A DNA stretch of 64,000 nt from Alphaproteobacteria bacterium (GTDB lineage: Bacteria > Pseudomonadota > Alphaproteobacteria > JACZXZ01). The notes under the pieces were generated by a model that was not told the origin of the DNA, did no database searches, and saw nothing but the letters and a program-made list of their open reading frames with translations. Positions 8,482 to 43,816 of the stretch are shown here, in pieces (the stretch's first letter is position 1; each line of letters opens with the position of its first letter). The DNA lies in contig JBKQRV010000093.1 in assembly GCA_052143835.1 (NCBI GenBank), forward strand, positions 69,387-133,386, given 5' to 3'. Made by a program: the position numbers and the translations under genes.

Positions 8482-8489
8482 CGGCGCTT

Positions 8490-18356: not shown

Positions 18357-18480
18357 GGGTAAGACGCGGTCGTGGCCGTCGTCGTCCCGGACAGATGAAG
18401 TTCGCGTGAGGACGCTGATATCGGATCAGTCACATGCGCCGCTGCAGGCTCCGATGCGACCTTGCCTTCGCTGTATTCGG

Positions 18481-23400: not shown

Positions 23401-24156
23401 GGGGTCAACTCGGATTTTCGGCCGAGCACGGACGGGTACGAGCTCGTGGCGCGCAATGAGGGTGGCGTGAGCTTATTGGTCTTGCCGGTGCCCTACTCGA
23501 CCTGCTGGCAGGCGGAGTGGCAGGGAAGCCCCGGCGCCCTCGTCCCCGTCGACGAGAGCTGGCTCGGCGTGCTGTTCCGCGGCGCGGCTGCACTCCGGCT
23601 TCGTCTCCCGGCCGAGGCTGCGCAGGCAAGCTGTGCCCAAGCGGACCGCGCGCGGGAGCGGATCGTCGATCTCCTCAAAGGCGACGCCGGCAAAATCGTC
23701 GGTGGACGCTATACAATCGGCGACACCATCAAGTTCGGAGCCGGCAGCGGCTCTGAATGGTACACGACGCGGGGATGGTGGGGCGCTGAGTCGTGGGGAA
23801 GATGGTCGGTCGGCGACGACGCGCGGCTGGTCCTGCGGCTGGGGGCACCGCCGCCGGGCGACCTGGAGCTCGATGCGGATTTGACGGCTTTGATTCTGCC
23901 CAATCGACCGGAAGTGCGGGCGACGGTGCGCGTCAACGGGATGAAGCTCGCCGTGTGGGACTTCCGTGCCGATAACACGCCCGGCCGACGCCAGGCCATC
24001 GTGCCGCGCGACTTGGTGGCGGATGCGAGGGTGATGATCGTCGATTTCCGGATCGACCATGTGGCCTCGCCGCTCGAGCTCGGCGCTTCGAGCGACAAGC
24101 GGCCCCTGGCACTCGGCTTCCGCAGCCTGACCGTGCGCGTCGCGGGGGCCCATTAG
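20488..24156 (+). CDS. Giant membrane protein (type A paralog, about 1220 aa).
   Basis: The start is GTG at 20488. It is collinear with 13804..17472: AFNL(Y/F)WYGAFLSFP(V/L)FGED, NRRWPRPLR, VPVASSYEQ(A/S)L(D/G)YLYYL(F/L)WTRYVSAG. The C-terminal module is GWWGAESWGRWSVG...SPLELGASSDKRPLALGF. Confidence 0.8.
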   Translation: MRRTTLTPYLDNLVRLVASDRRAFPLALLLVLAFNLFWYGAFLSFPLFGEDAGALFSNLLETIKDGQLATTHFPIKWLEGLGQPNLFVTFTFDPFSWAMLLPLEQADSFRLSMALRASAGWLSSYWFVLVLFRGRRGVALTAATLYLLVDFTLMNAWGIHTFAGMYNATHAALFPLLLALALLVMRSRRWLGPADLALLVALFFFLLDYPIGSLIGTCVLLAYTVVALGLTRPAERAAAVRGLAKIVAMVAILLLAPPLHVLASWSALLQDSARTVFPGELFAYGYDYVPPVMWARTSPALRACILLCLSVLLFNRRWPRPLRMAVGTLLIVVGGVQLAALAKYLEWAPTLIDRLPRFQFFEFYATPAYAACGGFALYYWRDLLFPRLAGRRRVVSWLRGAILFFPLAVVVLPLGAVAVGTYALLAIVARARGEAQRADWTASPASQRLVARAALIALVLAAVGAWLPPTAYIYPIFYLYGRCQTGLFWCRDPAGVTMGMGDNPITRYLRRALGGEGPFAGRAETLVRPPVRFERAPAGEIKWTPELYDRLHRWYARAYDALADKGSPTGDPFWLAPQDFTWEARWPLLVALDKFGHGDVEFDGPSQEDLILEMHKWYDEEGRKFGLLARDFMDPWEGMLSVTAAVDERNAAFFGTGNGLMMRALPFQNVPVASSYEQSLGYLYYLLWTRYVSAGQRGFKSINMTSLEALHPERLALLGVRYLLARDSKVYERPPLPHVMSWNGYSIYEVPGANVAGYGVSGVEFGSTLTDELRLMRRHGFHPRDTAVLPASERTSFEGRPARAWGTLQSSAITLTPGELTFTAVASGGESFVVLPFNWSHCWQAEWRKGSGRWSRADVDLIGVAFTGEIELHLRWTAGYGSASACLRDDRKQIAEAKRAAAEIGFSQPYEPFDGRSPPFAAVRPRFAADAVEATVLELKSMYQSGDEVVVPISVKQLLSPAELDGSAWSTGVNSDFRPSTDGYELVARNEGGVSLLVLPVPYSTCWQAEWQGSPGALVPVDESWLGVLFRGAAALRLRLPAEAAQASCAQADRARERIVDLLKGDAGKIVGGRYTIGDTIKFGAGSGSEWYTTRGWWGAESWGRWSVGDDARLVLRLGAPPPGDLELDADLTALILPNRPEVRATVRVNGMKLAVWDFRADNTPGRRQAIVPRDLVADARVMIVDFRIDHVASPLELGASSDKRPLALGFRSLTVRVAGAH

Positions 24157-24400
24157 GAAGGCGCGATGGACGCCTGCCCTCGGTCCGCGACCACGCCGCC
24201 CGACCGCGCAAGGCACATCTGCGCTCCGAACCCGCTCGCATCGCCTGGCCGCAGCGCCTGCCGATAGGCCGATTTCTTGCGTTCGCCGAGCGGAGCGCCC
24301 GACGTAACGGGCCGTATCGATTGCCAAGAGCGGGGGAGTGGACGTCGTCGGTTCTCCCGATCCTGCGGCGATTGATCGCGCTTAGGCCGGAACGCTCGCA

Positions 24401-26143
24401 TTATTGCGAAGCTTCCGTGACGACGCAGGAGTGCACGGCAATCCCGCCGAAAATGATTTGCCAGGTTCGACAGCGGTCGGTGCCGAGCAGCGCGAGATAG
24501 CCCTCCCGCTCGAGATATTCATGTTCGGCTTGTGCGGTTGCCAAATCGCCGGCCCAACTGTGCGGATCAACCGGCGCCATCCACATGAACACATAGCGCT
24601 TGGGCATGGGCATCTTGCGCCCCATTCCGATGTCGATCCCGTCGCGTCGGGTCGCGCGGTAGTCAACAAACCAATATTGCGGGAAAAATCGCTCTCGCGT
24701 CGGATTCTCGTTGGCATCAAAGGGGGGAGGCGCAGGGAGGGGGGTGAGCCCCCGGGCCATCATGTCCTCAATCGTTCCGACGCCGAAAAAATTATTGGGG
24801 ATCAAGGTGACGATGGGCAGGCCGTGCGAGCGGTTCCAGTCATAGACACGCTGGTTCCATAATCCGCCTGCCCGCTTGTCGGCCTCGGCCATTATCGAGA
24901 TCATGCCGGCGTTGTCACGGACCAGGGGAAAGCTCTTTATTGTCCACAATGCCGCAAGGGCCAAGACGCCGATTCCAAAGACCGCGAGCATGCCATTCGC
25001 ATCACGACTGGGCCGCAGACGCGAGACGAGGATAAGGGCGACGGTGGGGACCGCAAGATAGAAGTCGATCGCGGAAGTCGCGGCGCCGCGCCTCAATACG
25101 AAATAGAGGTTGGCTGCGATTGCGGTCAAGCCCGCCCAAACGATGGGGTTGCGGGCGCCATGGGGATGCCGAAGGAGGGCGCCCGCAATGGCGACGAGGC
25201 AAAAGCCCGACATCATCCATATGGGAACATAGGAGCCACTGCCGAACCACGGATGCGCCAGATTAAGCAGCTCGGCCGCAAATGATGAAGATCCTGTTAA
25301 GCCCGACATCCAGCCGTAAAGGAGCACCACGAACCGAACGGCGTACCTGACATTGCCATGATAATAGACGAGGAGACATAGCGCGTAGGTGGCGCCACAC
25401 GCCGCTGCGAGCATCGCGACGTCCCGCGCACGATGCCGGCTCGTGGCGAAAATCGAGGCGCCAAGCATCAGTGCAGGCGTCACGATATAAATGATCTTCA
25501 ATCCAGCCAACAGGCCCATGATGGCTCCCGAGAGTGCCACCAGCTTCACCATGCGTCGCTCTGTCAGGGCCGGTCCAGCAAGAGCCAAGCTGACAAATGC
25601 CATGAGAATGAGTAACGGTTCCTGAAGGACGTAATAATCGGGGAGCAGTGTGAACCAAAGGCCATAGTACGACCCATATTCATAGACCAGCGGGAGAGCG
25701 AAAAGCGCAAGTTTGGAGGGAAAGTCGATCGCCCGGCTACGCGCGATCGCAATTAGGACGAGTGCGAGCAGCACGGTCGCACTCAGGCTGGTCGCAAGCG
25801 CGAACAAGTTTGTCTTCTCCACCAGGGCGTTCTGCGGCGCCGGGTCGACGAGCCTAAGCGCCAAATAGATCGCCTGTTGGATGATGCCAGTCAGCGTCCC
25901 TTGGATTGGATGCGTGAAGTCGGCCGGATTCTCGATTGCGCGCAATATATTGAAGTAGCGGTAGCCGATGTTTTCGTTGAAGGCCGGGGCAACGCTCGTG
26001 CCAGCGACGATGAGGTGCAGTAGCGGAGCTGCGTAGACAATAACCACCGCCAACGCAAGCAAGAGCACGCCTGGAGTGGCGGCAACGAACCGGTGCGCGA
26101 TCCCTGGCCTTTTCGATGCAACGCCGCTAATCCTATCCAACAT
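24401..26143 (-). CDS. Polytopic membrane protein (about 580 aa, more than 10 TM helices plus a C-terminal soluble domain). It is GT-C-like and unrelated to the YfhO-like array.
   Basis: The ORF is 24401..26179, and ATG at 26143 (MLDRISG) is preferred. A hydrophobic profile runs through about aa 430, followed by a soluble C-terminal region. Confidence 0.5.
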   Translation of the reverse strand: MLDRISGVASKRPGIAHRFVAATPGVLLLALAVVIVYAAPLLHLIVAGTSVAPAFNENIGYRYFNILRAIENPADFTHPIQGTLTGIIQQAIYLALRLVDPAPQNALVEKTNLFALATSLSATVLLALVLIAIARSRAIDFPSKLALFALPLVYEYGSYYGLWFTLLPDYYVLQEPLLILMAFVSLALAGPALTERRMVKLVALSGAIMGLLAGLKIIYIVTPALMLGASIFATSRHRARDVAMLAAACGATYALCLLVYYHGNVRYAVRFVVLLYGWMSGLTGSSSFAAELLNLAHPWFGSGSYVPIWMMSGFCLVAIAGALLRHPHGARNPIVWAGLTAIAANLYFVLRRGAATSAIDFYLAVPTVALILVSRLRPSRDANGMLAVFGIGVLALAALWTIKSFPLVRDNAGMISIMAEADKRAGGLWNQRVYDWNRSHGLPIVTLIPNNFFGVGTIEDMMARGLTPLPAPPPFDANENPTRERFFPQYWFVDYRATRRDGIDIGMGRKMPMPKRYVFMWMAPVDPHSWAGDLATAQAEHEYLEREGYLALLGTDRCRTWQIIFGGIAVHSCVVTEASQ

Positions 26144-26373
26144 CTCCCCAACGGCTCTCCTTGGTAACGCTCTCGGCAATGGAATGTCCGATGCGGTTCA
26201 GTATAGGTGGTCGTTCTCCGCTTGGAAAAAGCTTGTTCCTTGACACGGTAGCAAAAGCTCGTCCTTGCGAGGTGGGAATTCCACTTGGCTCAATTCTTCC
26301 TCTCATCTGGTGCCCGAGCATGAGGCAGAACGGGCGCTCGACAAGAAGCATCCCGCGTGCGCAGCCGCCCGCG

Positions 26374-27141
26374 CTACTGCGGCCGGTCGCAATAGAAGAC
26401 CAAGCGCTCGTTGTAATTGATCTCCGTGAGACGTTCCGCGAGCTCCCGCCGCCACGCCTCGTCGCCGGCGCGGTAGGCTTGCCATTCGCGCAAGGTGAAG
26501 GGGACGAGCTTCTCGGGATGCAGCATCGGCAGGATGGTCAAGCCCGAAAGCCCCGCGGCCCGCGCGATTCCCTCGATCTCCTCGAGCACGACGTCGCGCT
26601 CGATCCAACTCGGGTCATGGGCCTTCTGCTGCTTGAGGAAGGCGATCGTCTCGGGCGAGCTGCTGTGCCGCGCGCCGGGCTCGACGAAGATCGCTCGGCC
26701 GCCGGGCTCGAGCACGCGCGCGAACTCGGCGAAGACGCGCGCATAATCATGCATGTGGTGCAGCGTGTCGTAGCAAAGCACGTGGCTGAAGAAGCCGTCG
26801 GCGAAGGGCATCGCGTGCCCGTCGCCATGCTGAAAGGAAATCAGCTCGGGCCGTATACGAAGGTCCGCGTCGACGCGATGCTGCAGGCATGCTTCGAGAT
26901 CGCCATGGATGTCAAAGGCGACGACGCGCCGTCCCATGCGGGCGAGCAGCTCGGTGATCCATCCCGAGCCCGCGCCGAAGTCGAGCACGGGCGCCTCGGA
27001 AAAGGGGGGATTCATGCAGGCCGCCATCATCGAAAAATCGAAGAGCAGACGGGCTGCCGAGCGGGGAACGCCGAACGGCTCGGTAATGGTGGGATTGCCC
27101 AGATAGTCGAATCCGGTCGGTCTTTCGGAACGCTTGAGCAT
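26374..27141 (-). CDS. Class I SAM-dependent methyltransferase.
   Basis: Motif I is VLDFGAGSGWITELLARMG, followed by an acidic-loop D and the FVEPG motif. It sits in a polysaccharide locus, so it may be a glycan-modifying or chain-terminating methyltransferase. Confidence 0.75.
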   Translation of the reverse strand: MLKRSERPTGFDYLGNPTITEPFGVPRSAARLLFDFSMMAACMNPPFSEAPVLDFGAGSGWITELLARMGRRVVAFDIHGDLEACLQHRVDADLRIRPELISFQHGDGHAMPFADGFFSHVLCYDTLHHMHDYARVFAEFARVLEPGGRAIFVEPGARHSSSPETIAFLKQQKAHDPSWIERDVVLEEIEGIARAAGLSGLTILPMLHPEKLVPFTLREWQAYRAGDEAWRRELAERLTEINYNERLVFYCDRPQ

Positions 27142-27342
27142 GAACGTCGTCGCCTGAGGTGAATTTGACGGGAGGCGAGTGTTCTAACATCCCGGCGTGC
27201 TTCGGCAAAGCCGTTTGGGGGGACCCGAAGAGGGGTGCTCAAGACGCGCGGGCAATTGCCGCTGGACAACGCGCTGTTCCGGCTTTACCAAATCGCCCGT
27301 AGAGCCGCCAACGCCCTAGCGAACGAGTACTATGACACCGGG

Positions 27343-28749
27343 ATGAGCCACACGCCATTGGAGCATGCGACCGTGATGGTCGATCTGACGCCGCTTTTGC
27401 CGGGCGGCGGGAACGGCGGCGCCAAGTGGTTCGTGTTGGCACTTCTCTCCGAGATGGGAGAGAGGCGCGCCGGCTGGCGCTGGCTCCTCCTCACGACCGC
27501 CTCGAACGACGCCCTCTTGGGCGAGGCATTGCCGTCGATGGCGCGGCTCCGCGTGCTCGATGAGCACGGCCGGGCACTCCTTCGCCCCGATCCGACCGCT
27601 CTTCCCGGAGGCGGCCGCGCCGACCTGCTCTATTGCCCGTTCACGGCGCCCTTCTACGCGCGTCCCGCCATGCCGACGGTTGCCACCGTCTACGATCTGC
27701 AGTTCATCGAGTATCCGCAGTTCTTCAGCCGTGCCGAGGTCGAGGAACGGGCCGCCAATTTCTTTCGGGCCGCGAACGTGGCCGACCGCTTGGTGTGCAT
27801 TTCCGACTACGTGCGCGATCAAGTTTGCCGCGCGACCGGCCTCGACGGGAGCTGGGTGCGGCGCGTCCATATCAGCCTGCCGGACCGGCTCGGGCCCGTC
27901 GATCGCGCGGCCCTGCCTGCACTCCTTGCCCGCCATGGCCTCGCGCGTCAGCGCTATCTGATCTATCCGGCCAACACCTGGCCGCACAAGAATCACGACA
28001 TGCTGCTGACGGCCGCCGGCATGTATTTCGCGCGGCATGCTACGAGCGATCTCAAGATCGTCTGCTCCGGCGTGAGCGACGATGCGCGCGGCCGGGCGCT
28101 CAAGGCGGCCGCGAGGCGGATGGGGCTCGGCGAGCGCGTGATATTCCCGGGCTTCCTCGCCGACGGCGACCTCGCAGGCCTGCTCGCCGCCGCCCGCGCC
28201 CTCATCTTTCCGTCCTTGTTCGAGGGCTTCGGCATGCCGCTTCTCGAAGCGATGGCCCAGGGCGTCCCGGTGCTGAGCGCCAACACCACGAGCTTGCCCG
28301 AGATCGCGGGCGACGCGGCACTCCTCTTCGATCCGCGCCGGCCCGGCGATATCCTCTCTGCGATCGAGACGATCGAGGAGGAGCCGCAAGTCGCCCTGCG
28401 GTTGGCCGAAGCGGGACGCGCGCGCGCGGTGGCGTTGGGGAACGCCGCCACCATGGCCGAGGCCTATCTCGGGCTCTTCGACGACATTATCGCGGAACAG
28501 CGCCGGCTGCTTGGGCCGCTCCGCCGCCGGCTGGGCTTGGCTCGCCGCGAAGTATCGCGTGCGCTCGCAAACGACCCGCGGGGCCTCGCCCGTCAAATGC
28601 GCCTGGGGCTTTACGCACGCATCCGGCGGGAGGCCGCTTGGCTTTGGGGCCGCGTGCAGCTGGCGCGCGCCGTCCTCGGAGGCCGGCTGCCGCAGTTGCG
28701 AGCGCTTGCCCGCCGGCTGCGCCGCGCCCTTCCGGGGGCCAAGTCGTGA
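27343..28749 (+). CDS. Family 1 glycosyltransferase (GT4-like, retaining).
   Basis: The C-terminal FPSLFEGFGMPLLEAMAQGVPVLSANTTSLPEIAGD is an EX7E-type motif. ATG is at 27343 (MSHTPLE). Confidence 0.75.
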   Translation: MSHTPLEHATVMVDLTPLLPGGGNGGAKWFVLALLSEMGERRAGWRWLLLTTASNDALLGEALPSMARLRVLDEHGRALLRPDPTALPGGGRADLLYCPFTAPFYARPAMPTVATVYDLQFIEYPQFFSRAEVEERAANFFRAANVADRLVCISDYVRDQVCRATGLDGSWVRRVHISLPDRLGPVDRAALPALLARHGLARQRYLIYPANTWPHKNHDMLLTAAGMYFARHATSDLKIVCSGVSDDARGRALKAAARRMGLGERVIFPGFLADGDLAGLLAAARALIFPSLFEGFGMPLLEAMAQGVPVLSANTTSLPEIAGDAALLFDPRRPGDILSAIETIEEEPQVALRLAEAGRARAVALGNAATMAEAYLGLFDDIIAEQRRLLGPLRRRLGLARREVSRALANDPRGLARQMRLGLYARIRREAAWLWGRVQLARAVLGGRLPQLRALARRLRRALPGAKS

Positions 28750-28813
28750 GCGCTCCGCGCGGCAATCGGCGTCCGGCGGGACGTCGCCGCAGCGGGGCGA
28801 GAGTGGGCGGCGA

Positions 28814-29719
28814 ATGAGCGCCGCGATTTCCGTCATTACGCCGTCCTTCGCGCAGGCTCGCTTCATCGAGCGGACCATCCGAAGTGTCATCGATCAAGGC
28901 GTTCCCGACATCGAATATGTGGTGGTGGACGGCGGCAGCAGTGACGGCACGGTCGATATCCTGCGCCGCTACGAGGATCGGCTGCGCTTCGTCTCGGAGC
29001 GCGACGCAGGGCAGGGCGATGCCGTCAACAAGGGCCTGATGATGACGACGGGCCCGGTCATCGGCTGGCTCAATTCGGACGATATTTACTATCCCGGCGC
29101 GCTCGGCGCGGTGCTCGATTATTTCGCGCAGCACCCGGAAGTCGACGTGGTTTACGGCGACGCCCGCCATATCGACGAGAACGACGCCGTGATCGAGGAC
29201 TATCCGACCGAGCCGTGGAATCTCGCGCGCCTGGCCGAGGTATGCTATCTCTGCCAGCCCGCCGTGTTCTTTCGCCGGCGCGTCGTCGAGCGCTTCGGTC
29301 TTCTCGACCAATCGCTTTACTTCTGCATGGATTATGAATACTGGCTGCGCCTCGGCCACGGCGGCGCCCGCTTCACACATTTGCCGCGTCTCCTCGCCGG
29401 CTCGCGCTTCTATCCCGAGAACAAGACGCTCCGAGGGCGTGCCGCATTCCATGCCGAGATCAACGGCATGCTGAGGCGCCGGCTCGGCCGCGTGCCGGAC
29501 CGGTGGCTTGCCAATTATGCCCATGTCGTGGTCGAGGAGCGCGGCATCGCGCGCGACAGCGGGCCGCGCTTCGCCTTCGCGGTCAGCTGGGCGACGCTCA
29601 AGGCGGGATGGCATTGGAACCGCATGCTCAACCCCTCGCTTTTGGCGCTCACCTTGGGCTGGCTGCGCGGCGCCGTCGCCCAGACGCTGGCCTTGCGCCG
29701 GCCCGGAGCCATCCCTTGA
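28814..29719 (+). CDS. Family 2 glycosyltransferase.
   Basis: ISVITPSFAQARFIERTIRSVIDQ...VVVDGGSSDGT...NSDD is the classic GT2 N-terminal pattern. ATG is at 28814. Confidence 0.8.
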   Translation: MSAAISVITPSFAQARFIERTIRSVIDQGVPDIEYVVVDGGSSDGTVDILRRYEDRLRFVSERDAGQGDAVNKGLMMTTGPVIGWLNSDDIYYPGALGAVLDYFAQHPEVDVVYGDARHIDENDAVIEDYPTEPWNLARLAEVCYLCQPAVFFRRRVVERFGLLDQSLYFCMDYEYWLRLGHGGARFTHLPRLLAGSRFYPENKTLRGRAAFHAEINGMLRRRLGRVPDRWLANYAHVVVEERGIARDSGPRFAFAVSWATLKAGWHWNRMLNPSLLALTLGWLRGAVAQTLALRRPGAIP

Positions 29720-30894
29720 GAATCGGCTTCGACGTCAGTCAGACGGGTGCGGACAAGGCGGGCTGCGGCTTTCTCGCCGCAAATCTCGTCCGCCAGCTGC
29801 CGGCGCTCATGCCCGCGGACGAGTTCCTGCTATACCCGACCTTCGGTGACCTCTACTGGGACGAGCGCTGGCCTTCCGACACGGCCTTTCCCGAGGGCCA
29901 CAACGTGCGGCGCGGCTTCCACCATGCGGACTTCGAGGCGGCGCGCGACTTCTGGCGCTTGCCGCCCGACGATCTCGATCGGCTGCTCGGCGATCCCGAC
30001 ATCGTCCACTCCAACAACTTCTTCTGCCCCTCCGGCCTCCGCCGCGCCCGCCTCGTCTACACGCTCTACGATCTCAATTTCCTCGAGAACCCCGAGTGGA
30101 CCACCGAGGCCAACCGGATCGGCTGCTTCCAGGGCGTGTTCAATGCCAGCGTGAACGCCGACTTCATCATTGCCATCTCCGACTTCTCCCGTCGGCACTT
30201 CCTCAGCTGCTTTCCGCATTATCCGGTCGAGCGCACCGCCGTGGTCCACCTTGCGAGCCGCTTCGACGATGATTCCGCAGACGCGGCCGCGGCGGAGGCG
30301 CCCGAGCGGCTCGCCCGCCTCGGGCCCGCGGGCTTCTGGCTTACGGTCGGCACCATCGAGCCGCGCAAGAACTACGACGGCCTGCTGGAGGCCTACGCCC
30401 GCTTGAAGGCGCTGGAGAGCGTGGTGCCGCCCCTCGTGATCGCCGGCAAGAGCGGCTGGATGATGCAGCATTTCGAGGAGCGACTCGCCGAGCTCGGCCT
30501 CGCGGACGATGTGCTGAGGCTCGGCTACGTGAGCGAGACGGAGCTGCGCTGGCTCTACCGGAACTGCTTCGCCTTCGTCTACCCGAGCTTCTGGGAGGGC
30601 TTCGGCTTGCCGGTCGTGGAGGCCATGAGCCAGGGGGCGCCTGTGATCTCCTCGAACGTCAGCTCGATCCCGGAAATCCTCGATGACGCCGGCCTCCTCA
30701 TCGATCCCCGTGACGGCGAAGCCTTGCTGCGCGCGATGCGCCATCTTGCGGGCTCGTCCGCATTGCGCCGCGAGCTCGGCGCGCGCGCGCGTGCGCATGC
30801 GGCCCGCTTCTCCTGGCAGGCGGCGGCGCGCCGCGCGGCCGAGATCTATCGCGAGACGCTCGCCCGCCCGCGCTACGCGGAGAGCCCCGACTGA
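29716..30894 (+). CDS. Family 1 glycosyltransferase (GT4-like).
   Basis: YPSFWEGFGLPVVEAMSQGAPVISSNVSSIPEI is an EX7E motif. The TTG start at 29716 overlaps the upstream stop (TTGA), which suggests translational coupling. Confidence 0.7.
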   Translation: MRIGFDVSQTGADKAGCGFLAANLVRQLPALMPADEFLLYPTFGDLYWDERWPSDTAFPEGHNVRRGFHHADFEAARDFWRLPPDDLDRLLGDPDIVHSNNFFCPSGLRRARLVYTLYDLNFLENPEWTTEANRIGCFQGVFNASVNADFIIAISDFSRRHFLSCFPHYPVERTAVVHLASRFDDDSADAAAAEAPERLARLGPAGFWLTVGTIEPRKNYDGLLEAYARLKALESVVPPLVIAGKSGWMMQHFEERLAELGLADDVLRLGYVSETELRWLYRNCFAFVYPSFWEGFGLPVVEAMSQGAPVISSNVSSIPEILDDAGLLIDPRDGEALLRAMRHLAGSSALRRELGARARAHAARFSWQAAARRAAEIYRETLARPRYAESPD

Positions 30895-30945: not shown

Positions 30946-32265
30946 TCAATGTGCGTGCGGCACGAGGTCGACCGTGACCTCGCAGGGAATGCGCACGGCT
31001 CCGGTGAAGGGCAGCGGCGCCTCGCCCTCGGTCACCTCGATCGGCCCCAGCCCGTCGTGGCGATCGCGCACGAAGGCCATGTTCGGGTCGGGCGTTCCCG
31101 CGAGTTCGCCGCTGTTGATCGAGAGCGTATAGAGCCCCGGCCGCACGGCGAATTGCAGGGTGAAGCGCACGATCGCCGAGCTGCCCGCCTCGAGCGGCGG
31201 CAACGGCCGGCCGAGATGAATGAAGCTCGTGGAGAAGACGAGGCCGCCCGCGCTGTCATAGAGCTCGAAGCCGACGTTGGGTTTCGCCACCCTCTCGCGG
31301 ACCGCGACGAGCGCCTCGATCACGAGGCGGTCGAGCGCTGGAACGCGCCGGCAGTCCTCGCCGGAGGTATTGGCGAGGCGTACCGCCGCGATCTCGAACG
31401 ACGACGCGCCGAGGCGCTTCCCTCGGGGGATGAGCGAGTGCGCAGAGAGCCGCTCCGCCGCGTCGGCGTCGGCGACCATGACGCGCGCCGGGGCGGGAGC
31501 GCGGGCCGTGGCGGCGGGCTCGAGCGCGCGCCCGGTCTCGACGATGTAGCGCCCGATCGCCTCGTCGGTCGAGCCGTCGAAGTCGATCGCCCCGCCGCGC
31601 AGCAGGATGGCGCGGCTGCACATGGCGCGCACGGCCGCCATGTCGTGCGAGACGAAGAGGAGCGTGGTGCCGCGGCCCACGGTCTCGCGCATGGCGCCGT
31701 AGCATTTCTGCTGGAAGAAGATGTCGCCGACCGCGAGCGCCTCGTCCACGATGAGCACGTCGGGGGCAAAGAAGAGGTAGGTCGCGAAGGCGAGACGGAT
31801 CATCATGCCCGAGGAGTAGATCTTGAAGGGGTCGTCGATGAAGGGGCCGATCTCGGCGAAGGCCAGGATGTCCGCCATGCGCGCCTCGGCGTAGCCTGCG
31901 GGAAAATCCAAGAGACGGGCGAGATTGCGCACGTTCTCGCGCCCGCTCAGCTCCGGGTGGAAGCCGGCGCCGAGCTCGAGCAGCGCGAGCGTCGAGCCGC
32001 CGATCTCGGCGCGCCCCCCGCTCGGCGTGAGCACGCCCGCGAGCAGCTTGAGGAGCGTCGTCTTGCCCGCGCCATTGAGGCCGATGATGCCGACGCTCTC
32101 GCCGCGGCGGACGCGGAAGCTCACCTTGCGAAGCGGCCAGATCTCCTGGCGGTAGCGCGAGCGCCCGCGCGTAAGCCAATCCGCCAAGCGGTGCCAGGGC
32201 TGCTCGTAGAGCGCGTAGCACTTCGACAGCCCCTCGACGACGACGGCACCCGGCCCGGCGGTCAT
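30946..32265 (-). CDS. wzt: Polysaccharide-export ABC transporter ATP-binding protein with a C-terminal glycan-binding domain (Wzt/TagH-like).
   Basis: The N-terminus carries Walker A (GLNGAGKTTLLK), the ABC signature YSSGMMIRLAF, Walker B (LIVDEAL) and an H-loop (VSHD). It has a C-terminal extension of about 170 aa, as in O-antigen Wzt proteins. Confidence 0.8.
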   Translation of the reverse strand: MTAGPGAVVVEGLSKCYALYEQPWHRLADWLTRGRSRYRQEIWPLRKVSFRVRRGESVGIIGLNGAGKTTLLKLLAGVLTPSGGRAEIGGSTLALLELGAGFHPELSGRENVRNLARLLDFPAGYAEARMADILAFAEIGPFIDDPFKIYSSGMMIRLAFATYLFFAPDVLIVDEALAVGDIFFQQKCYGAMRETVGRGTTLLFVSHDMAAVRAMCSRAILLRGGAIDFDGSTDEAIGRYIVETGRALEPAATARAPAPARVMVADADAAERLSAHSLIPRGKRLGASSFEIAAVRLANTSGEDCRRVPALDRLVIEALVAVRERVAKPNVGFELYDSAGGLVFSTSFIHLGRPLPPLEAGSSAIVRFTLQFAVRPGLYTLSINSGELAGTPDPNMAFVRDRHDGLGPIEVTEGEAPLPFTGAVRIPCEVTVDLVPHAH

Positions 32266-33167
32266 CTCGGAGGCCTCGCTTCATGGCCGAGGGCAAGGCG
32301 GCGGCGACGCGACAGACCGTGATAGAACCCGCGCCCGCGCCCGGGGTAGAGGAGGAGCGAGCGGCCGAGGCACCAGGCGGCCTCGAGCGCGCGGCCGTGA
32401 TGGTAGTAGGCGACCCCGCGCTCGTACCAGATCGTCGAGCGCAGCAGCCGTTGCGCCCGGTGCGAGTGTCGGCCCGCGGCCTGCCGGTGTATTTCCCAAA
32501 TCCGGGCCACGGAGGCGTTGACGGCTGCCACGCTCGGCCATGTCCGGCCGGCATGGATGACGGCGAGCGGCTCGCTCAGGGAAGCGATCGGCCGCTTTGC
32601 CGTGTAGCGCAGCAGCCAGTCCCAATCCTCAAGCCGCGGAATGGCCTCGTCGAACGCGCCGAACTCCTCGAAGGCGCTACGCCGCATGAGCGCGCAGGAG
32701 CCGAAGCTCACATTGCAGGCGAGAAGCAGGCGCAGATACCAGTCCTCAGGCTCGAGCAGCGGCCGCGCCTCTGCTTCCGTCCCCTGGTCGCGGCTGAGCG
32801 CATAGCCGCAAAGTGCGAGCGAGCGGCTCTCGCCGGAAGCCGCGAGGAGCGCCCGCTGCCGCTCGAGCTTGGCCGGCAGCCACTCGTCGTCGGAATCGAG
32901 AAAGGCGATCGTTTCGCCGCGGCTCTCCCGAATGCCCGTATTGCGCGCGGCGGCGGTCCCGTGATTGCGCTCGTGGCGCAAGACGCGTAGACGCGCGTCC
33001 GCGAATGGCTGAAGCGCACCCTTAAGGTCGTCGGTGGAGGCGTCGTCGACGATGACCAGCTCGAAATCACCGAAGCTCTGGTCCAGCACCGAGCGCACGG
33101 CCCTGGCGATCGACCACGCGCGATTGAATACCGGGATGACGACGCTGATCTCAGGCGGGTTATTCAT
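32262..33167 (-). CDS. Family 2 glycosyltransferase.
   Basis: ISVVIPVFNRAWSIARAVRSVLDQ...LVIVDDASTDD...LDSDD. Its stop overlaps the wzt start (ATGA). Confidence 0.8.
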   Translation of the reverse strand: MNNPPEISVVIPVFNRAWSIARAVRSVLDQSFGDFELVIVDDASTDDLKGALQPFADARLRVLRHERNHGTAAARNTGIRESRGETIAFLDSDDEWLPAKLERQRALLAASGESRSLALCGYALSRDQGTEAEARPLLEPEDWYLRLLLACNVSFGSCALMRRSAFEEFGAFDEAIPRLEDWDWLLRYTAKRPIASLSEPLAVIHAGRTWPSVAAVNASVARIWEIHRQAAGRHSHRAQRLLRSTIWYERGVAYYHHGRALEAAWCLGRSLLLYPGRGRGFYHGLSRRRRLALGHEARPPR

Positions 33168-33380
33168 GACCGGCGGCGGCGCTCCGACCTTCGCTCGGCG
33201 CATTCCGAGACAGGCTGATTTCTACCATGGTGGGGGCGAGCGCGTCCCGCGGCCCGCCGCCCCGCTCCGCACGTGCCGCGGACGGCGGCGGCCGCAGCGG
33301 CTTGCCTTCCGAGATCGTTGTAATAGCAATTATTCGCCGGTACCATCGCCTGCCGATGCTGCCTGAGGGGAGAGGATGAC

Positions 33381-34478
33381 ATGGACTTCGGCTATTTTAC
33401 GTTGAGCGACAACCACTACCCCGACAATCCGCGCAGCGCCGAGCGCTTCATCCTCGATATCCGCGAGCAGGCGCTCCTTGCCGACGAGCTCGGCATGCAC
33501 TCGGTTTGGATCGGCGAGCATCATTTCGATTCCCTCGGCGTCAATTCCTGTCCGGGCACGCTGCTTGCCAGCATCGTGCCGCTGACGAAGCGCGTCCGCT
33601 TGGCACCCGCGGTCGCCGTGCTGCCGCTTCACCATCCCCTTCGCGTCGCCGAGGAATGGGCCACGCTCGATCTCTTGAGCGGCGGGCGCGTCGACTTCGC
33701 CGCCGGGCGCGGCTATGACCGGCGCGAATACGAGCCCTTCGGGGCCAATTTCATGGCATCGATCGAGCTCTTCGCGGAAGGGGTCGACATCCTGCTCAAG
33801 GCATGGAACGAGCCTGGACCATGGTCCTACGAGGGCAAGCATTACACCATCAGGGACATGGCGATCACGCCGAAACCCGTGCAGAAGCCGATCCCCTTCT
33901 TCATCGCCTGCTTCTCGCGCTCGAGCATGGAGATCGCCGCGAGGAGGGGCCTCAACATCATTTTCGCCCCCTTCGCCGCCGCCATGACCTTCGGCGACCT
34001 TGCCAAGGCGGTCCAGGCCTACCGCGAGGAGTGCGCCAAGGAGGGTACGCGGCCCGGCAAGGCGATGTGCAGCTACTTCATCCATATCGCCGACACGGCC
34101 GCCGAGGAGGACTACGGGCGCGAGACGTTGATGAGCTACTTCCGGCATTGCGTGCTGCCCGCCTTCCCCAAGGATCCGGCCAAGGCGCCGCCGACCATGC
34201 AGTACTTCATGCGCATCGTCGAAATCCTCAAGGGCATGCGCAAGGAGGATCTGAGCGACAAATCGATCCTGCTCGGCTCGCCGCAGAAGATCATCGAGAC
34301 GCTCAAGCGGGTCGAGGCGGCCGGCATCGAAGAGGTGATCCTCTATTTCAATGTCGGCAACAAGCCGCACGCCCTGGTCAAGGAGCAGATGGCCAAATTC
34401 ATGGCGAGCGTGGCTCCCGCTTTCGCAGGGTCTCACCAACATGTTCGATCTCGCATCGTATCTGCCCTACCTGGTTAA
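33381..34478 (+). CDS. LLM-class (luciferase-like) flavin-dependent oxidoreductase.
   Basis: The N-terminus FGYFTLSDNHYP...SVWIGEHHF and the overall length are typical of F420/FMN-dependent LLM proteins. Confidence 0.7.
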   Translation: MDFGYFTLSDNHYPDNPRSAERFILDIREQALLADELGMHSVWIGEHHFDSLGVNSCPGTLLASIVPLTKRVRLAPAVAVLPLHHPLRVAEEWATLDLLSGGRVDFAAGRGYDRREYEPFGANFMASIELFAEGVDILLKAWNEPGPWSYEGKHYTIRDMAITPKPVQKPIPFFIACFSRSSMEIAARRGLNIIFAPFAAAMTFGDLAKAVQAYREECAKEGTRPGKAMCSYFIHIADTAAEEDYGRETLMSYFRHCVLPAFPKDPAKAPPTMQYFMRIVEILKGMRKEDLSDKSILLGSPQKIIETLKRVEAAGIEEVILYFNVGNKPHALVKEQMAKFMASVAPAFAGSHQHVRSRIVSALPG

Positions 34479-34905
34479 CCGCATCGGCGTCCGCCTCGCC
34501 GGCGCCTTCGGCAAGGAGCTCGCGGCCCGCGGCATAACATTGCCCATGTGGCGCGTGCTGGCCGCGTTGCGCCACAGCGGCGGCCAACGCGTGGGCCGGC
34601 TCGCCGCGGCGACCTCGATCGAGGTCTCCACCCTCTCGCGCCTCCTCGCCCGGATGGAGCGCCGCGGCCTCGTTCGCCGCGAGCGGGGGAGCGAGGACGC
34701 GCGGAGCGTCCTCGTCGAGCTCACCCAGGCGGGCGCCCGCCTCACCCAAAGGATCATCCCGCGCGCGCTTCACTACGAGGAGGTGGCACTCAGGGATTTC
34801 AACCGGGCGGATGCCGAAGCGCTCAAGGAGATGCTGGTGCGGGTCTACGACAATATCGGCGCGCTCGAGGAGGAGGGCCGGGAGAAGGCCCGGCGGAGCG
34901 CCTGA
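34441..34905 (+). CDS. MarR-family transcriptional regulator.
   Basis: The wHTH region is LPMWRVLAALRHSGGQRVGRLAAATSIEVSTLSRLLARMERRGLVRR. Its start overlaps the LLM 3' end by about 38 nt. Confidence 0.7.
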   Translation: MFDLASYLPYLVNRIGVRLAGAFGKELAARGITLPMWRVLAALRHSGGQRVGRLAAATSIEVSTLSRLLARMERRGLVRRERGSEDARSVLVELTQAGARLTQRIIPRALHYEEVALRDFNRADAEALKEMLVRVYDNIGALEEEGREKARRSA

Positions 34906-34999
34906 GCCGGCGCGGACGGCGCAGCAAAGCGGTTTCCGTGCCCGGCAAGGTCGAGTAGACTTGGCTTTCGCCGCTGCCAAGACATCAGGGAGGATAACG

Positions 35000-36166
35000 A
35001 TGAACAAGCAACTGATCGCGGCTGCCACGGCGCTCTGCCTCATCGCGGCACCCGCACTCGCGGCCGACAAGGTGAAGATCGGCTTCGTCAGCACGCTTTC
35101 GGGCCCGCAGGGCGTGATCGGCAAGCACCAGAAGGACGCGGCCGACTTGGCGCTCGAGATGCTGGGCGGCAAGATAGGAGGGCTCCCGGCCGAGATCATC
35201 TACGGCGACGACCAGTTCAAGCCGGACGTGGGCCGCCAGGTCGCCGAGGAGATGCTCAAGAAGGATAACGTCGATTTCATGACCGGCTTCATCTGGTCGA
35301 ACGTGCTGCTGGCGGCCTACCAGCCGATCATCAAATCGGGAACCATCCTGATCGGCGCCAACGCCGGGCCGCACGAGATCGCGGGCGCGATGTGCGCGCC
35401 CAATTTCTTCTCGACCTCCTGGCAGAACGACGAGACGCCCGAGGCCATGGGCAAGTACATGAGCGACCAGAAGATGACCGATGTCTATATCATGGCGCCC
35501 GACTATGCCGCCGGCAAGGACATGCTCGCGGGGTTCAAGCGTTACTTCAAGGGCAAGTTGGTCGACGAGGTCTACACCAAGCCCGGCCAGGCGGATTACC
35601 AGGCCGAGATCAGCCAGATCCGCGCGGCCAATCCGAAGGCCGTGATGGTCTTCTATCCGGGCGGCATGGGCATCCAGTTCATCAAGCAATACGCGCAATC
35701 CGGACTGCGCGAGAAGATTCCGCTCTATTCGGTGTTCTCGGTCGACGAGACCGTGTTGCCCGCCATCGGCGACGCGGCGGACGGCAATTACGAGACGGGC
35801 TTCTGGTCGCCCGACCTCAAGAACGCGCGCAACCAGGAGTTCGTCGCCGCCTTCCGCAAGAAGTACAACTACTATCCCTCCTTCTATGCGGCCGAGAGCT
35901 TCGATGCGATTGCGCTGATCGACAGCGCGGTCAAGGCGGTCAAAGGCGACCTCACCGACAAGAAGGGGCTGCTCGCGGCATTCGACAAGGCCGACTTCGC
36001 TTCCGTGCGCGGACCCTACAAGTACAACACCAACCACTTCCCGATCGAGAACTTCTACCTCTTCAAGATCGTCAAGGACGCGGAGGGGAACCACGTCCGC
36101 AAGCTCGAGAGCACCGTCTTCACCGACCACAAGGACGCTTACTACGAGGAGTGCAAGATGCAGTGA
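35000..36166 (+). CDS. ABC transporter periplasmic substrate-binding protein (LivK/LivJ-like, HAAT family).
   Basis: It has a signal peptide (MNKQLIAAATALCLIAAPALAADK). It is the first gene of a KHMGF-ordered operon, with an RBS (gggagg) upstream. Confidence 0.8.
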   Translation: MNKQLIAAATALCLIAAPALAADKVKIGFVSTLSGPQGVIGKHQKDAADLALEMLGGKIGGLPAEIIYGDDQFKPDVGRQVAEEMLKKDNVDFMTGFIWSNVLLAAYQPIIKSGTILIGANAGPHEIAGAMCAPNFFSTSWQNDETPEAMGKYMSDQKMTDVYIMAPDYAAGKDMLAGFKRYFKGKLVDEVYTKPGQADYQAEISQIRAANPKAVMVFYPGGMGIQFIKQYAQSGLREKIPLYSVFSVDETVLPAIGDAADGNYETGFWSPDLKNARNQEFVAAFRKKYNYYPSFYAAESFDAIALIDSAVKAVKGDLTDKKGLLAAFDKADFASVRGPYKYNTNHFPIENFYLFKIVKDAEGNHVRKLESTVFTDHKDAYYEECKMQ

Positions 36167-36189
36167 AGCGTGCCTCAGTGCCCACTCTC

Positions 36190-36345
36190 GAACATTCGAG
36201 CGTCACCCCCTCCCCATCGGCCGCTCCTCAACGGGCGGCCGATCCCCCCATCGAGGGGGAGGGGGAAGTTGTTGATGGCGCTCCTCTTTCCCCTCCCCCC
36301 TTGAGGGGGAGGGTAGGGAAGGGGGTGTATCACGTCTCGATGATT
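36190..36345. repeat. REP-like palindromic element (G/C-run hairpins). It belongs to the same family as 63590..63715 and carries an inner-hairpin insertion.
   Basis: Shared blocks are gagcgtcaccccctcccca ... gggggagggggaagttgttga ... cccctccccccttgagggggagggtagggaaggggg. It is intergenic between the SBP and permease genes. Confidence 0.8.
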
Positions 36346-36465
36346 CCGAGTACCAGCACGACCCTATCGCGCTTGCGCGAGAGGGTGGCCGCAAAGCGGC
36401 CGGGTGAGGGAGCGTCCCGGCTTCGCCCATTCATGCTCTAGCATGCTCTAGACAAGGTGCTGTCG

Positions 36466-37389
36466 ATGCAGCCGCTTCTCGTCCTCGAGCAGGGATTGAA
36501 CGGCGTGCAGTTCGGCGTCATGCTGTTTCTGATGGCGGCCGGGTTGACGCTCGTGTTCGGAATCATGAATCTGATCAACCTCGCGCACGGCTCGCTCTAC
36601 ATGATCGGCGCCTACGTCTGCGCCTACGTCTTCCAGGCGAGCGGCTCCTTCCTTCTGGGCATCGGCGCGGCCCTCGCCGCGGCCATCGTCGTCGGCATCG
36701 TCATCGAGGTCGTGGTGTTCCGCGCGCTCTATACGCGCGAGCATCTCGATCAGGTGCTCGCCACCTTCGGGCTCATCCTCTTCTTCGACGAGATGGTGCG
36801 CATCATCTGGGGCCCCACGGCGCTCTACGCGAGCATTCCCGAATTTCTTTCCGGTCAGGTCGAGATCCTGCCGGGCGCGCCCTTCCCCTCCTACCGCCTT
36901 GCCATCATCGTCGTGGGCCTCTTGGTGGCGCTCCTTCTCTATCTTCTGGTCGCCAAGACGCGCTTGGGCATGCTGATCCGCGCGGGTGCGAGCAACCGCG
37001 TCATCGTGGGCGCGCTCGGCGTCAACGTGACGCTGCTCTATACCTTCGTCTTCGCCTTGGGCGCGGCACTTGCGGCTTTCTCCGGCCTCATGGCCGGGCC
37101 GATCTTCACGGTCGAGTCCGGCATGGGCGAGAATGTGCTCATCCTCGCCTTCGTGGTGATCGTGATCGGCGGCATCGGCTCGATCCGGGGCGCCTTCGTC
37201 GCGAGCCTGCTCGTGGGCATCGTCGACACCATGGGCCGAGCCTTCCTTCGCCCGCTGCTCGCGACCGTCATGGCGCCGGCGGCGGCCGACAACGCGGGGC
37301 CGGCGCTCGCCTCCATGTTGATCTACATCCTGATGGCGACCGTGCTGTTCTTCCGGCCTCAGGGCCTGTTCCCGCCGCGTGTGAGATAG
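36466..37389 (+). CDS. Branched-chain amino acid ABC transporter permease (LivH-like).
   Basis: It shows polytopic LivH-family conservation (NLINLAHGSLYMIGAY). GTG at 36457 is an alternative start. Confidence 0.8.
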   Translation: MQPLLVLEQGLNGVQFGVMLFLMAAGLTLVFGIMNLINLAHGSLYMIGAYVCAYVFQASGSFLLGIGAALAAAIVVGIVIEVVVFRALYTREHLDQVLATFGLILFFDEMVRIIWGPTALYASIPEFLSGQVEILPGAPFPSYRLAIIVVGLLVALLLYLLVAKTRLGMLIRAGASNRVIVGALGVNVTLLYTFVFALGAALAAFSGLMAGPIFTVESGMGENVLILAFVVIVIGGIGSIRGAFVASLLVGIVDTMGRAFLRPLLATVMAPAAADNAGPALASMLIYILMATVLFFRPQGLFPPRVR

Positions 37390-37392
37390 GCC

Positions 37393-38343
37393 ATGCGGCT
37401 CGGCAGAGGGGCGCTCACCGTGGCCCTCGGGACGCTCGCGCTCGCCGCGGTGCCGCCGCTTGCCGCCGTGTTCGGCCAGCCTTTCTATCTCGACCTCTTC
37501 ACGCGCATCCTCATCTTCGCGATCGCAGCCTTGAGCCTCGATCTCATCCTCGGCTACGGCGGCATGGTGAGCTTCGGCCACGCCGCCTATCTCGGTATCG
37601 GCGCCTATTCGGTCGGCATCCTCAGCCATTACGGCATCACCGACGGCCCCTTGCATTTCGCCGTCGCGGTCGCGGCCTCGGCGCTTGCGGCGCTTGCCAT
37701 CGGCGCCGTCTCGCTGAGGACGAGCGGGGTCTACTTCATCATGATCACGCTCGCCTTCAGCCAGATGATCTACTTCCTCGGCGTCAGCCTCAACGTCTAC
37801 GGCGGCGACGATGGCATGAACATCGCCGCGCACAGCGAGTTCGGCAGCGCGCTCGACTTGGACAACGCGAGCGTCCTCTATTACCTGGTGCTCGCGATCC
37901 TGCTGCTCTTCTTCTTTGTCGGCCGGCGGCTGGTCGCCTCGCGCTTCGGCATGGTGATCCGCGGCGTCAAGTCTAACGAGCGCCGCATGCACGCCATCGG
38001 TTTTCCCACCTTCCGCTACAGGCTTACCGCCTTCGTGATCTCGGGCGCCATGTGCGGGGTGGCCGGAGCTCTTCTCGCGAACCTGACGCTTTTCGTCTCG
38101 CCCTCGATCATGCATTGGACCCGCTCCGGCGAAGTCTTGATGATGGTGATCCTCGGCGGAATGGGCTCGCTCTTCGGACCGGTGCTGGGTGCCGTCGCCT
38201 ATCTCGTGCTCGAGCAACTGCTCTCCGGCTTCACCTCGCATTGGCAGGCGATCCTCGGCCCGATCCTCGTCCTGGTCGTGCTCTTCGCCAAGCGGGGCAT
38301 CTTCGGGATCTTCGCGGGCGCGGAGGAGGCCGGTCGTGGCTGA
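37393..38343 (+). CDS. Branched-chain amino acid ABC transporter permease (LivM-like).
   Basis: LDLILGYGGMVSFGHAAYLGIGAY is a LivM-type core. Confidence 0.8.
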   Translation: MRLGRGALTVALGTLALAAVPPLAAVFGQPFYLDLFTRILIFAIAALSLDLILGYGGMVSFGHAAYLGIGAYSVGILSHYGITDGPLHFAVAVAASALAALAIGAVSLRTSGVYFIMITLAFSQMIYFLGVSLNVYGGDDGMNIAAHSEFGSALDLDNASVLYYLVLAILLLFFFVGRRLVASRFGMVIRGVKSNERRMHAIGFPTFRYRLTAFVISGAMCGVAGALLANLTLFVSPSIMHWTRSGEVLMMVILGGMGSLFGPVLGAVAYLVLEQLLSGFTSHWQAILGPILVLVVLFAKRGIFGIFAGAEEAGRG

Positions 38344-39091
38344 GGCGTTGCTCGCGATCGAGGGGCTCGTCAAGCGCTTCGGCGGCCTCACCGCGACCGA
38401 CCAGGTTTCGCTCGAGGTTCCCGCGGGCGAGCTCCACGCCGTCATCGGACCGAATGGCGCCGGCAAGACCACGCTCATAGCCCAGCTCGCCGGCGAGCTC
38501 ATGCCCGATGGGGGCAGCATCCGCTTTGCCGGCGAGGACGTGACGCGGCTTCCCACGTACAGGCGCGTGCGCCGGGGGCTCGCCCGCTCGTTTCAGATCA
38601 CGAGCGTCTTCAGGGAATTCACCACGCTCGACAACGTGGCCCTCGCCGTCCAGGCCCAGGCCGGGCACAGTTTCCGCTTTTGGCGTCCGGCGCGCGCGGA
38701 AGCGGCCTTGCGCGAGCCGGCGCGCGCCATCCTCGAGCAGGTCGGCCTGGGCGCGCGCGCGGACGTGCCGGCTGCGATATTGGCGCATGGCGAGAAGCGC
38801 GCGCTCGAGATCGCACTCGCGCTCGCCGGCCGGCCGCGGCTCCTCATGCTCGACGAGCCCATGGCGGGCATGGGGCCCGAGGATTCGGCACGCATGGTGC
38901 GCTTTCTCTCGACCCTCAGGGGCAAGCTCACCATCCTACTCATCGAGCACGACATGGACGCCGTGTTCGCGCTCGCCGACCGCATCACCGTGCTCGTCTA
39001 CGGCCGCGCGATCGCCAGCGGGACGCCCCAGGCGATCCGGAGCAACGCCGAGGTGCGAGAGGCCTATCTCGGCGAGGAGACCACGCCATGA
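38336..39091 (+). CDS. ABC transporter ATP-binding protein (LivG-like).
   Basis: It has Walker A (GPNGAGKTT), a signature and Walker B (LLMLDEPMAG). The GTG start overlaps the livM stop. Confidence 0.8.
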   Translation: MAEALLAIEGLVKRFGGLTATDQVSLEVPAGELHAVIGPNGAGKTTLIAQLAGELMPDGGSIRFAGEDVTRLPTYRRVRRGLARSFQITSVFREFTTLDNVALAVQAQAGHSFRFWRPARAEAALREPARAILEQVGLGARADVPAAILAHGEKRALEIALALAGRPRLLMLDEPMAGMGPEDSARMVRFLSTLRGKLTILLIEHDMDAVFALADRITVLVYGRAIASGTPQAIRSNAEVREAYLGEETTP

Positions 39092-43700: not shown

Positions 43701-43816
43701 GGCAGATACCTCCCAGGATCGTCCGCCGCGAGGTTGCGGCGCTCGCGGGCACCGACTATACAACGCGGCCGCGCCGCCCGCCAATGCGCTCGCCGGGCTC
43801 TCGCTCGCTTGCGCGC

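Follow-up and report, generated by a model that had tools for sequence, protein, structure and literature searches.

An intact wzt gene without a nearby wzm, beside an array of giant GT-C-like membrane proteins in an alphaproteobacterial genome

The 64-kb stretch analyzed here (64,000 nucleotides of contig JBKQRV010000093.1, hereafter the window) comes from the metagenome-assembled genome (MAG) of an alphaproteobacterium and carries a wzt gene, which encodes the ATPase subunit of a glycan exporter of the Wzm/Wzt type. The gene is intact and its product is under selective constraint, no gene for the permease Wzm is found on about 72 kb of the contig, and the giant membrane proteins encoded next to it have, in both families that were modelled, the fold of GT-C glycosyltransferases. 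It is considered probable (about 0.6) that this Wzt belongs to a canonical type-V ATP-binding cassette (ABC) exporter whose wzm is encoded elsewhere and which would feed a lipid-linked glycan to a periplasmic battery of GT-C enzymes. A wzt gene unlinked from wzm is moreover a recurrent genome organization rather than an anomaly, seen in about 30% of related loci. The source contig measures 142,100 bp (locus tags ACLQME_11520 to 11595), and the GC content of the window is about 66%. Gene order was established by open reading frame (ORF) calling guided by the GC content of third codon positions (GC3), and public gene calls on identical contigs give matching coordinates.

An intact Wzt and the absence of a local wzm

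The gene and the parts of its product, a protein of 439 amino acids (aa), are as follows.

30946..32265, minus strand: wzt, 439 aa, encoding the ATPase component of a glycan ABC exporter of type V (Wzm/Wzt), Pfam ABC_tran and Wzt_C
31531..32265, minus strand: ATPase domain, aa 1-245
31417..31530, minus strand: linker, aa 246-283, Ala/Pro-rich
30949..31416, minus strand: carbohydrate-binding domain, aa 284-439

A first-pass annotation of the window had described a Wzt homologue with a canonical nucleotide-binding domain and a C-terminal extension of about 170 aa that binds glycans, and this description stands. Pfam ABC_tran covers residues 45-177 (E 2.8e-19) and Wzt_C residues 284-412 (E 3.7e-12, 46.9 bits against a cut-off of 30.4), both scores exceeding the curated Pfam cut-offs, and the part beyond the ATPase domain, linker and binding domain together, measures about 190 aa, close to the earlier figure. 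All motifs examined are intact, namely Walker A (62-70, GLNGAGKTT), the signature (150-154, YSSGM), Walker B (171-176, LIVDEA) and the H-loop (205-208, VSHD), and the top NCBIfam matches are TagH/TarH and the galactan Wzt/RfbE ATPases. A family profile of this Wzt and 23 homologues was compared with the solved full-length Wzt of Aquifex aeolicus (8DKU/7K2T), where it aligned with the ATPase domain over residues 7-245 (E 2e-97) and, in keeping with a glycan-binding C-terminal domain, with the binding domain (residues 288-432 to 256-393, E 1e-10). A single-sequence search of the PDB with the C-terminal domain returned nothing meaningful; the A. aeolicus binding domain was reached by the family profile alone.

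The N-terminal gate helix with its Tyr/Arg-lined electropositive pocket, a feature specific to Wzt and TagH, is likewise present. In the alignment with A. aeolicus, the pocket residues Y17, Y20, R26, and R39 correspond to Tyr11, Tyr14, Arg20, and His31; K15 and R26 do not vary among the 24 aligned Wzt sequences, and Lys12 is replaced by Ala. In the A. aeolicus complex, the gate helix packs on loops of Wzm and forms the proposed binding site for undecaprenyl diphosphate (UndPP; PMC6379404). The retention of these pocket residues therefore points to docking onto a Wzm-type channel.

The reading frame of wzt is intact and has a GC3 of 0.92. Between the window and a related locus, L006, the ratio of nonsynonymous to synonymous substitution rates (dN/dS) is 0.25 for the whole of Wzt. 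Taken separately, the ATPase domain has a value of 0.16, the binding domain one of 0.26 and the linker one of about 1.2, by which measure the linker (31417..31530) evolves neutrally while both flanking domains are constrained. Purifying selection on the two domains is seen among relatives of 74-95% identity. By every available sequence criterion, Wzt is functional, and 30946..32265 is accordingly read as a genuine, ordinary, intact Wzt with a Wzt_C carbohydrate-binding domain.

The permease is the missing part, as the first-pass annotation had stated for the 64 kb of the window, and all approaches agree on its absence. Every membrane ORF of the window with a length near 300 aa is an importer permease of the LivH/M type (BPD_transp_2) by Pfam and NCBIfam, and none of the other membrane ORFs of the window has an ABC-2 permease match in either database. 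A hidden Markov model (HMM) of Wzm was built from 43 permeases encoded directly upstream of Wzt homologues and run on six-frame ORFs of at least 60 aa (--max, E<=10). It had no match in the window or in the 7.6 kb upstream of it (L088), nor in the two closest relatives, L005 and L006 (10 kb on either side of each), or in L093, a second stretch of 24 kb on the contig of L005; the stretch covered in the relatives thus amounts to about 45 kb (L005 and L093) and 21 kb (L006). As a positive control, the same HMM finds two Wzm proteins from outside the training set at E 1.8e-65 and 5.6e-84. When a 20-sequence Wzm profile was aligned by hhalign with each large membrane protein or family, the probability was at most 0.6% throughout. 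A wzm immediately outside the window on the same operon strand had been named as a finding that would refute the orphan status; the upstream 7.6 kb, on the cluster side, contains none, and about 72 kb of this contig is therefore without a Wzm-type gene.

The accompanying claim that wzm and wzt are almost always paired proves too strong. Among the best 80 Wzt loci from species-representative genomes, wzm is adjacent in 50, at most 1.3 kb away in 6 and absent from the flanks in 24. Where both flanks reach at least 5 kb, as in 56 loci, 17 (30%) lack it. In a neighbour-joining tree of Wzt ATPase domains, the window forms an orphan clade with L005 and L006. Its sister L090 (46% identity) is the nearest paired relative and has the canonical order methyltransferase-wzm-wzt-methyltransferase; L091 is a wzm-wzt locus as well. 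The lineage of the window therefore descends from a canonical pair.

A second orphan clade comprises about 16 species of Acidobacteria, mostly Bryobacterales, all without wzm nearby. In both annotated loci of this clade (L016 and L030), wzt directly follows gidA-gidB-parA-parB, and in L030 it is followed by a WbdD-like methyltransferase-coiled-coil protein (about 450 aa) and then by a GT2+GT4 glycosyltransferase fusion (about 760-815 aa). This layout reads as that of the O8/O9a systems minus the permease. The acidobacterial orphan loci are L016, L021, L030, L037, L039, L042-L046, L063, L065, L072, and L082, with no wzm within 10 kb. Given two separate orphan clades in the tree and 30% of the long-flank loci, the unlinking of wzt from wzm has arisen repeatedly and endures on long evolutionary timescales. 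Literature searches on wzt genes that are orphan or unlinked yielded no paper describing them. Adjacency of wzm should accordingly not be a requirement in annotation pipelines or in the prediction of pathways from gene clusters, about 30% of related loci having an unlinked wzt.

The GT-C array and the genes around wzt

The left 26 kb of the window (1..26200), together with the sequence upstream of it (L088, 1..7630), encodes at least nine polytopic proteins of 580-1580 aa. They fall into four to five paralogous families with no Pfam or NCBIfam assignment, and the GC content of this array is 0.59-0.65 as opposed to 0.66-0.70 in the rest of the window. The array and the methyltransferase gene next to it contain the following features.

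1..1959, plus strand: further family A GT-C paralogue, ACLQME_11520 (1219 aa), cut by the left end of the window so that its C-terminal part lies inside
2371..5925, plus strand: M1, GT-C fold glycosyltransferase, 1184 aa, ATG at 2371
6142..8481, plus strand: M2, polytopic membrane protein of family B, 779 aa, weakly YfhO-like C-terminus
8997..13745, plus strand: M3, giant polytopic membrane protein, about 1582 aa, no Pfam match, not Wzm-like
13804..17472, plus strand: M4, family A GT-C, paralogue of M5 (blastp, 59% identity), ACLQME_11540
17562..18425, minus strand: GT2 glycosyltransferase inside the array (Pfam, NCBIfam)
18481..19623, minus strand: nucleoside diphosphate (NDP)-sugar 4,6-dehydratase/epimerase inside the array (Pfam, NCBIfam)
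20488..24156, plus strand: M5, family A GT-C fold glycosyltransferase, 1222 aa, exact match to MGO8867127
24401..26179, minus strand: M6, polytopic membrane protein, 580-592 aa, at least 8 transmembrane segments, downstream of the methyltransferase gene in the same operon
26374..27141, minus strand: class-I S-adenosylmethionine (SAM) methyltransferase, 255 aa, single-domain, Pfam Methyltransf_11 (E 4.8e-22)

Both modelled families, family A and the M1 family, have the GT-C fold and resemble solved GT-C enzymes. For an AlphaFold2 model of M5 aa 1-700 (predicted template modelling score, pTM, 0.77), the confident Foldseek matches are all GT-C proteins (STT3, AftA, ArnT, AftD, and AglB). Acidic residues of the first periplasmic loop follow directly on the first transmembrane segment in both families, the usual position of GT-C catalytic residues: D39 and E42 are invariant in the M1 family, and in family A E50 is nearly invariant (at least 90%) and D51 conserved. 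On these models, M1 and the family A proteins are predicted to be GT-C glycosyltransferases and not channels, and it can be inferred from the fold that they would use a polyprenyl-phosphate-linked sugar donor on the periplasmic side of the membrane. The GT2 at 17562..18425 and the dehydratase/epimerase are candidate makers of the sugar donor; neither an obvious donor flippase nor a polyprenyl-phosphate sugar synthase was recognized. An assignment of the giants as EmbC/AftD-type by sequence was rejected, as they have no Pfam or NCBIfam match; the link to GT-C comes through the fold alone.

M1 also carries fn3-like domains, and its C-terminus has two repeats of about 140 aa that are DUF7024-like and recur in family A and in a giant protein of L005. 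The C-terminus of M5 is a beta-rich, DUF7024-like domain, that of M4 has a weak DUF7024 match, and the C-terminal half of M3 has a paralogue upstream of the window. Homologues are few: among 5.8 billion clustered proteins, 31 are detectable for family A and 60 for the M1 family, all annotated as hypothetical. The first-pass annotation had raised the option of a novel membrane protein taking the place of the permease. For the families tested this fails, the modelled ones being GT-C and none being Wzm-like by profile (hhalign of M2 against Wzm, for instance, gave a probability of 0.4%).

GT-C arrays also occur at L092-L095 with no wzt or wzm within 10 kb, and Wzt is therefore not an obligate partner of such arrays. 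These loci (L092 on a 1.93-Mb contig, L093 on an 896-kb contig, L094, and L095) belong to other Alphaproteobacteria and groundwater MAGs, and their arrays are interleaved with SAM methyltransferases (up to five, in L093), a fatty-acid desaturase, DegT aminotransferases, and sugar dehydrogenases. This gene content suggests a heavily methylated glycan or glycolipid elaborated in the periplasm. The GT-C array is a more novel feature than the orphan Wzt: if the glycan were characterized, several new GT-C (CAZy) families could emerge, and the system might become a Gram-negative model for extensive periplasmic polysaccharide elaboration.

M6 has no Pfam or NCBIfam match, a profile search of the PDB gave nothing, and a Pfam scan of 50 of its homologues returned nothing informative. 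An exhaustive HMMER search found 108 homologues among 1.84 billion representatives, in which E69, R80, D181, and K228 are invariant. The hhalign probability for M6 against Wzm is 0.16%. Alignments of M6 with GT-C family A and with the M1 family are non-significant; the one with the M1 family lines up the first transmembrane segment and the N-terminal ‘NES’ and ‘QG’ motifs. M6 may thus be another divergent GT-C. It is not conserved beside wzt in L005 or L006.

The methyltransferase had been put forward as a possible source of the terminal cap that Wzt would recognize. It does belong to the cluster, and methyltransferase genes are repeatedly found next to related wzt genes. In the PDB its best matches are methyltransferases of a generic kind, one of them a D-glucose O-methyltransferase; WbdD is absent from the matches at E<1e-3, and neither a kinase nor a coiled coil was found. 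The check for a WbdD-type terminator proposed earlier therefore came out negative, the protein having a methyltransferase domain only. The protein is best described as a candidate glycan O-methyltransferase. The binding domain of A. aeolicus Wzt reads a 3-O-methyl sugar cap (PMC9445017), and a methyl cap is plausible here also. At the position of the A. aeolicus methyl-pocket Trp362, however, the Wzt clade of the window has no Trp, the profile consensus being His. The idea of one orthologous wzt-linked methyltransferase across the clade was rejected, as those of three clade members are not orthologous.

The remaining genes of the glycan cluster surround wzt in two converging units.

27235..30894, plus strand: convergent operon GT4a-GT2b-GT4c
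27235..28749, plus strand: GT4a, GT4 glycosyltransferase, start codon uncertain, Glycos_transf_1 (E 5.2e-26)
28814..29719, plus strand: GT2b, GT2 glycosyltransferase, about 301 aa, Glycos_transf_2 (E 3.7e-26), start placed from relatives
29716..30894, plus strand: GT4c, GT4 glycosyltransferase, 392 aa, closing the convergent GT4-GT2-GT4 operon, Glycos_transf_1 (E 2.8e-32)
32262..33167, minus strand: GT2 glycosyltransferase, 301 aa, first gene of the GT2-wzt operon, Pfam Glycos_transf_2 (E 8.5e-34)
33329..33356, minus strand: sigma-70-like promoter match upstream of GT2-wzt (consensus scan, 9/12; weak evidence)
33381..34478, plus strand: luciferase-like oxidoreductase, divergent from GT2-wzt

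The overlap of the upstream GT2 stop with the wzt start and the convergent GT4, both noted earlier, are confirmed. The TGA of GT2 overlaps the ATG of wzt as ATGA, an arrangement of translational coupling, and the coupled pair is kept in three genomes (the window, L005, and L006). The stop codons of GT4c and wzt lie 51 bp apart, and a scan of this 51-bp gap revealed no convincing terminator. GT4c shares 72% identity with its counterparts in L005 and L006, and GT4a 74-75% with its orthologues there. The promoter match sits in the divergent intergenic region common to GT2-wzt and the luciferase-like gene, and the spacing of NCBI locus tags and accessions leaves no uncalled genes between M5 and the latter.

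Further features lie in the right part of the window. Three separate Liv-type ABC importer sets (branched-chain amino acid family; 34538..39091, 52746..56024, and 57256..59912) each have Peripla_BP_6 binding proteins and BPD_transp_2 permeases. A further membrane protein, M7 (40793..42556, minus strand; about 556-587 aa, about 12 transmembrane segments, unmatched in Pfam and NCBIfam), is not part of the glycan cluster and adjoins a glutathione S-transferase gene. The single tRNA-Ser (CGA) gene of the window (43654..43738, plus strand) is located between M7 and an AMP-binding enzyme gene.

The probable location of a Wzm partner

In the reading that we favor, a canonical Wzm/Wzt exporter with a distant wzm, the adjacent GT2 and the convergent GT4-GT2-GT4 operon would probably build an UndPP-linked polymer backbone in the cytoplasm, and a chemical cap, possibly methyl, would probably terminate it. 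Binding of the cap by Wzt's C-terminal domain would license export, Wzm/Wzt would flip the completed UndPP-linked polysaccharide across the inner membrane in an ATP-driven step, and the GT-C battery would decorate the exported glycan in the periplasm using polyprenyl-phosphate sugar donors, by analogy with mycobacterial arabinogalactan assembly or with post-polymerization glycosylation of the Gtr/GT136 type. A Wzm partner would be required, and its gene may lie on this contig beyond the 72 kb; alternatively, the permease may be one shared with a separate wzm(-wzt) locus. The place of Wzm, the chemistry of the cap and the order of events are what we infer in this scheme.

A wzm located elsewhere is favored by the intactness and constraint of Wzt with its gate helix, by the canonical pair of the sister lineage, by the frequency of unlinked wzt and by the GT-C identity of the local membrane proteins. 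All described ABC-transporter-dependent lipopolysaccharide (LPS) pathways require both Wzm and Wzt (PMC2841628). The pathway is, in addition, dispersed in any case, since initiating phosphoglycosyltransferase families went undetected in the window and the wzt module of L005, bounded by housekeeping genes, lies 25 kb from the main GT-C array. Several points weigh against this reading. No wzm of this organism or of its clade was found in the stretches covered, the source is a MAG of which about 72 kb of a 142-kb contig was covered, and a scan of a genome collection gave no close relative among the matches listed (best 41% identity). M2, M3, M6, and M7 were set aside as not Wzm-like by sequence and profile methods alone, not by structure. 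Finally, the idea of a methyl cap draws on gene neighborhood, with methyltransferases that are not orthologous and a methyl-pocket Trp that is not conserved.

Wzt might instead have as its partner one of the cluster's own membrane proteins without homology to Wzm (M6, M2, M3, or one of the GT-C giants). The two would then constitute a novel type of exporter or else a machine for periplasmic glycosylation gated by ATP and the cap. Such a partner would be at hand, as the wzt module lies in or beside arrays of uncharacterized polytopic proteins in the window, L005, and L006; in L005, a giant of 1205 aa is the last gene of the GT4-GT2-GT4 operon converging on wzt, and in the window M6 belongs to the methyltransferase operon and has no assigned fold. 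Both modelled families are nevertheless clearly GT-C, no family resembles Wzm (hhalign at most 0.6%), M6 is not found near wzt in the relatives and the arrays of L092-L095 have no wzt nearby. Moreover, the features of the gate helix through which Wzt touches Wzm in the solved structure are retained here (PMC6379404). Pairing of this kind is therefore regarded as unlikely. No type-V ATPase is known to operate with a transmembrane domain from outside the ABC-2 class, which further counts against it. The more far-reaching claim that the clade, perhaps together with the acidobacterial orphans, has no Wzm in its genomes and that Wzt couples to a non-ABC-2 partner from the cluster, for example M6 or a giant, is quite improbable; if true, it would amount to a new architecture for the export of lipid-linked glycans or to an ATP-gated hand-over to periplasmic GT-C enzymes.

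A Wzt that works without any permease, as a soluble or peripheral cap-sensing ATPase which regulates chain termination or passes the glycan on, would agree with the finding of no local transmembrane partner. It would also agree with the binding domain of E. coli O9a Wzt, which is reported to be able to act in trans from the rest of the transporter (cited in PMC9445017). Such a role is without precedent and is very improbable for a protein whose most constrained part is the ATPase domain (dN/dS 0.16), which keeps all catalytic motifs and the gate helix, and whose sister lineages have ordinary wzm-wzt pairs. The least probable proposal is that wzt is the decaying remnant of a wzm-wzt pair with a deleted permease. 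An adjacent wzm has indeed been lost relative to the sister lineage, but the intact frame, the GC3 value, the complete set of motifs, the purifying selection on both domains and the retention of the coupled GT2-wzt pair in three genomes largely refute it.

Comparison with known systems

The Wzt of the window shares the YSSGM variant of the signature, the gate helix and the domain order with the Wzm-Wzt transporter of A. aeolicus (7K2T, 8DKU; PMC6379404, PMC9445017). In contrast, A. aeolicus and the other studied systems encode wzm with wzt, whereas none is found here within about 72 kb, and Trp362 of the A. aeolicus methyl pocket is not conserved. TagH and TarH give the best NCBIfam matches to the ATPase domain (E 2.5e-50 and 3.9e-41, both under the equivalog cut-offs) and share the gate helix; proteins of this type align with Wzt over the ATPase domain only, with no match to their C-terminal parts.

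With the wzm-wzt-wbdD-wbdA systems of E. coli O9a/O8 and Klebsiella O3/O5 (PMC3482155), the cluster would share the logic of cytoplasmic polymerization by GT4-type enzymes, a terminating modification and licensing by Wzt's C-terminal domain. It differs from O9a/O8 in its single-domain methyltransferase of 255 aa, which has no WbdD match, and in the absence of wzm from the locus. The acidobacterial orphan clade, with wzt, a methyltransferase-coiled-coil protein and GT2/GT4 enzymes, comes nearer to the O9a/O8 layout than the window does.

Mycobacterial galactan is exported by Wzm/Wzt and then arabinosylated by the Aft/Emb GT-C enzymes. ABC-dependent O-antigen pathways combined with periplasmic glycosylation by GT-C enzymes are documented too, in the three-component GT136 and Gtr systems (PMC11127046). 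The window is like these and the mycobacterial systems in combining a Wzt that has a binding domain with GT-C proteins that carry extra periplasmic domains of carbohydrate-binding appearance, the C-terminal repeats and fn3-like domains recalling the carbohydrate-binding modules of EmbC, AftD, and GT136 ORF12 (PMC11127046). As in these systems, GT2 and sugar-nucleotide enzymes are interspersed among the GT-C genes. Unlike the known Gram-negative systems with one to few such genes, the window and the sequence upstream of it have at least nine GT-C-like genes, and their families, again unlike those of the known systems, have no Pfam, NCBIfam or CAZy-type assignment. The arrangement in this alphaproteobacterial lineage is arabinogalactan-like, with an ABC-export module beside at least nine rare and unclassified GT-C-like genes.

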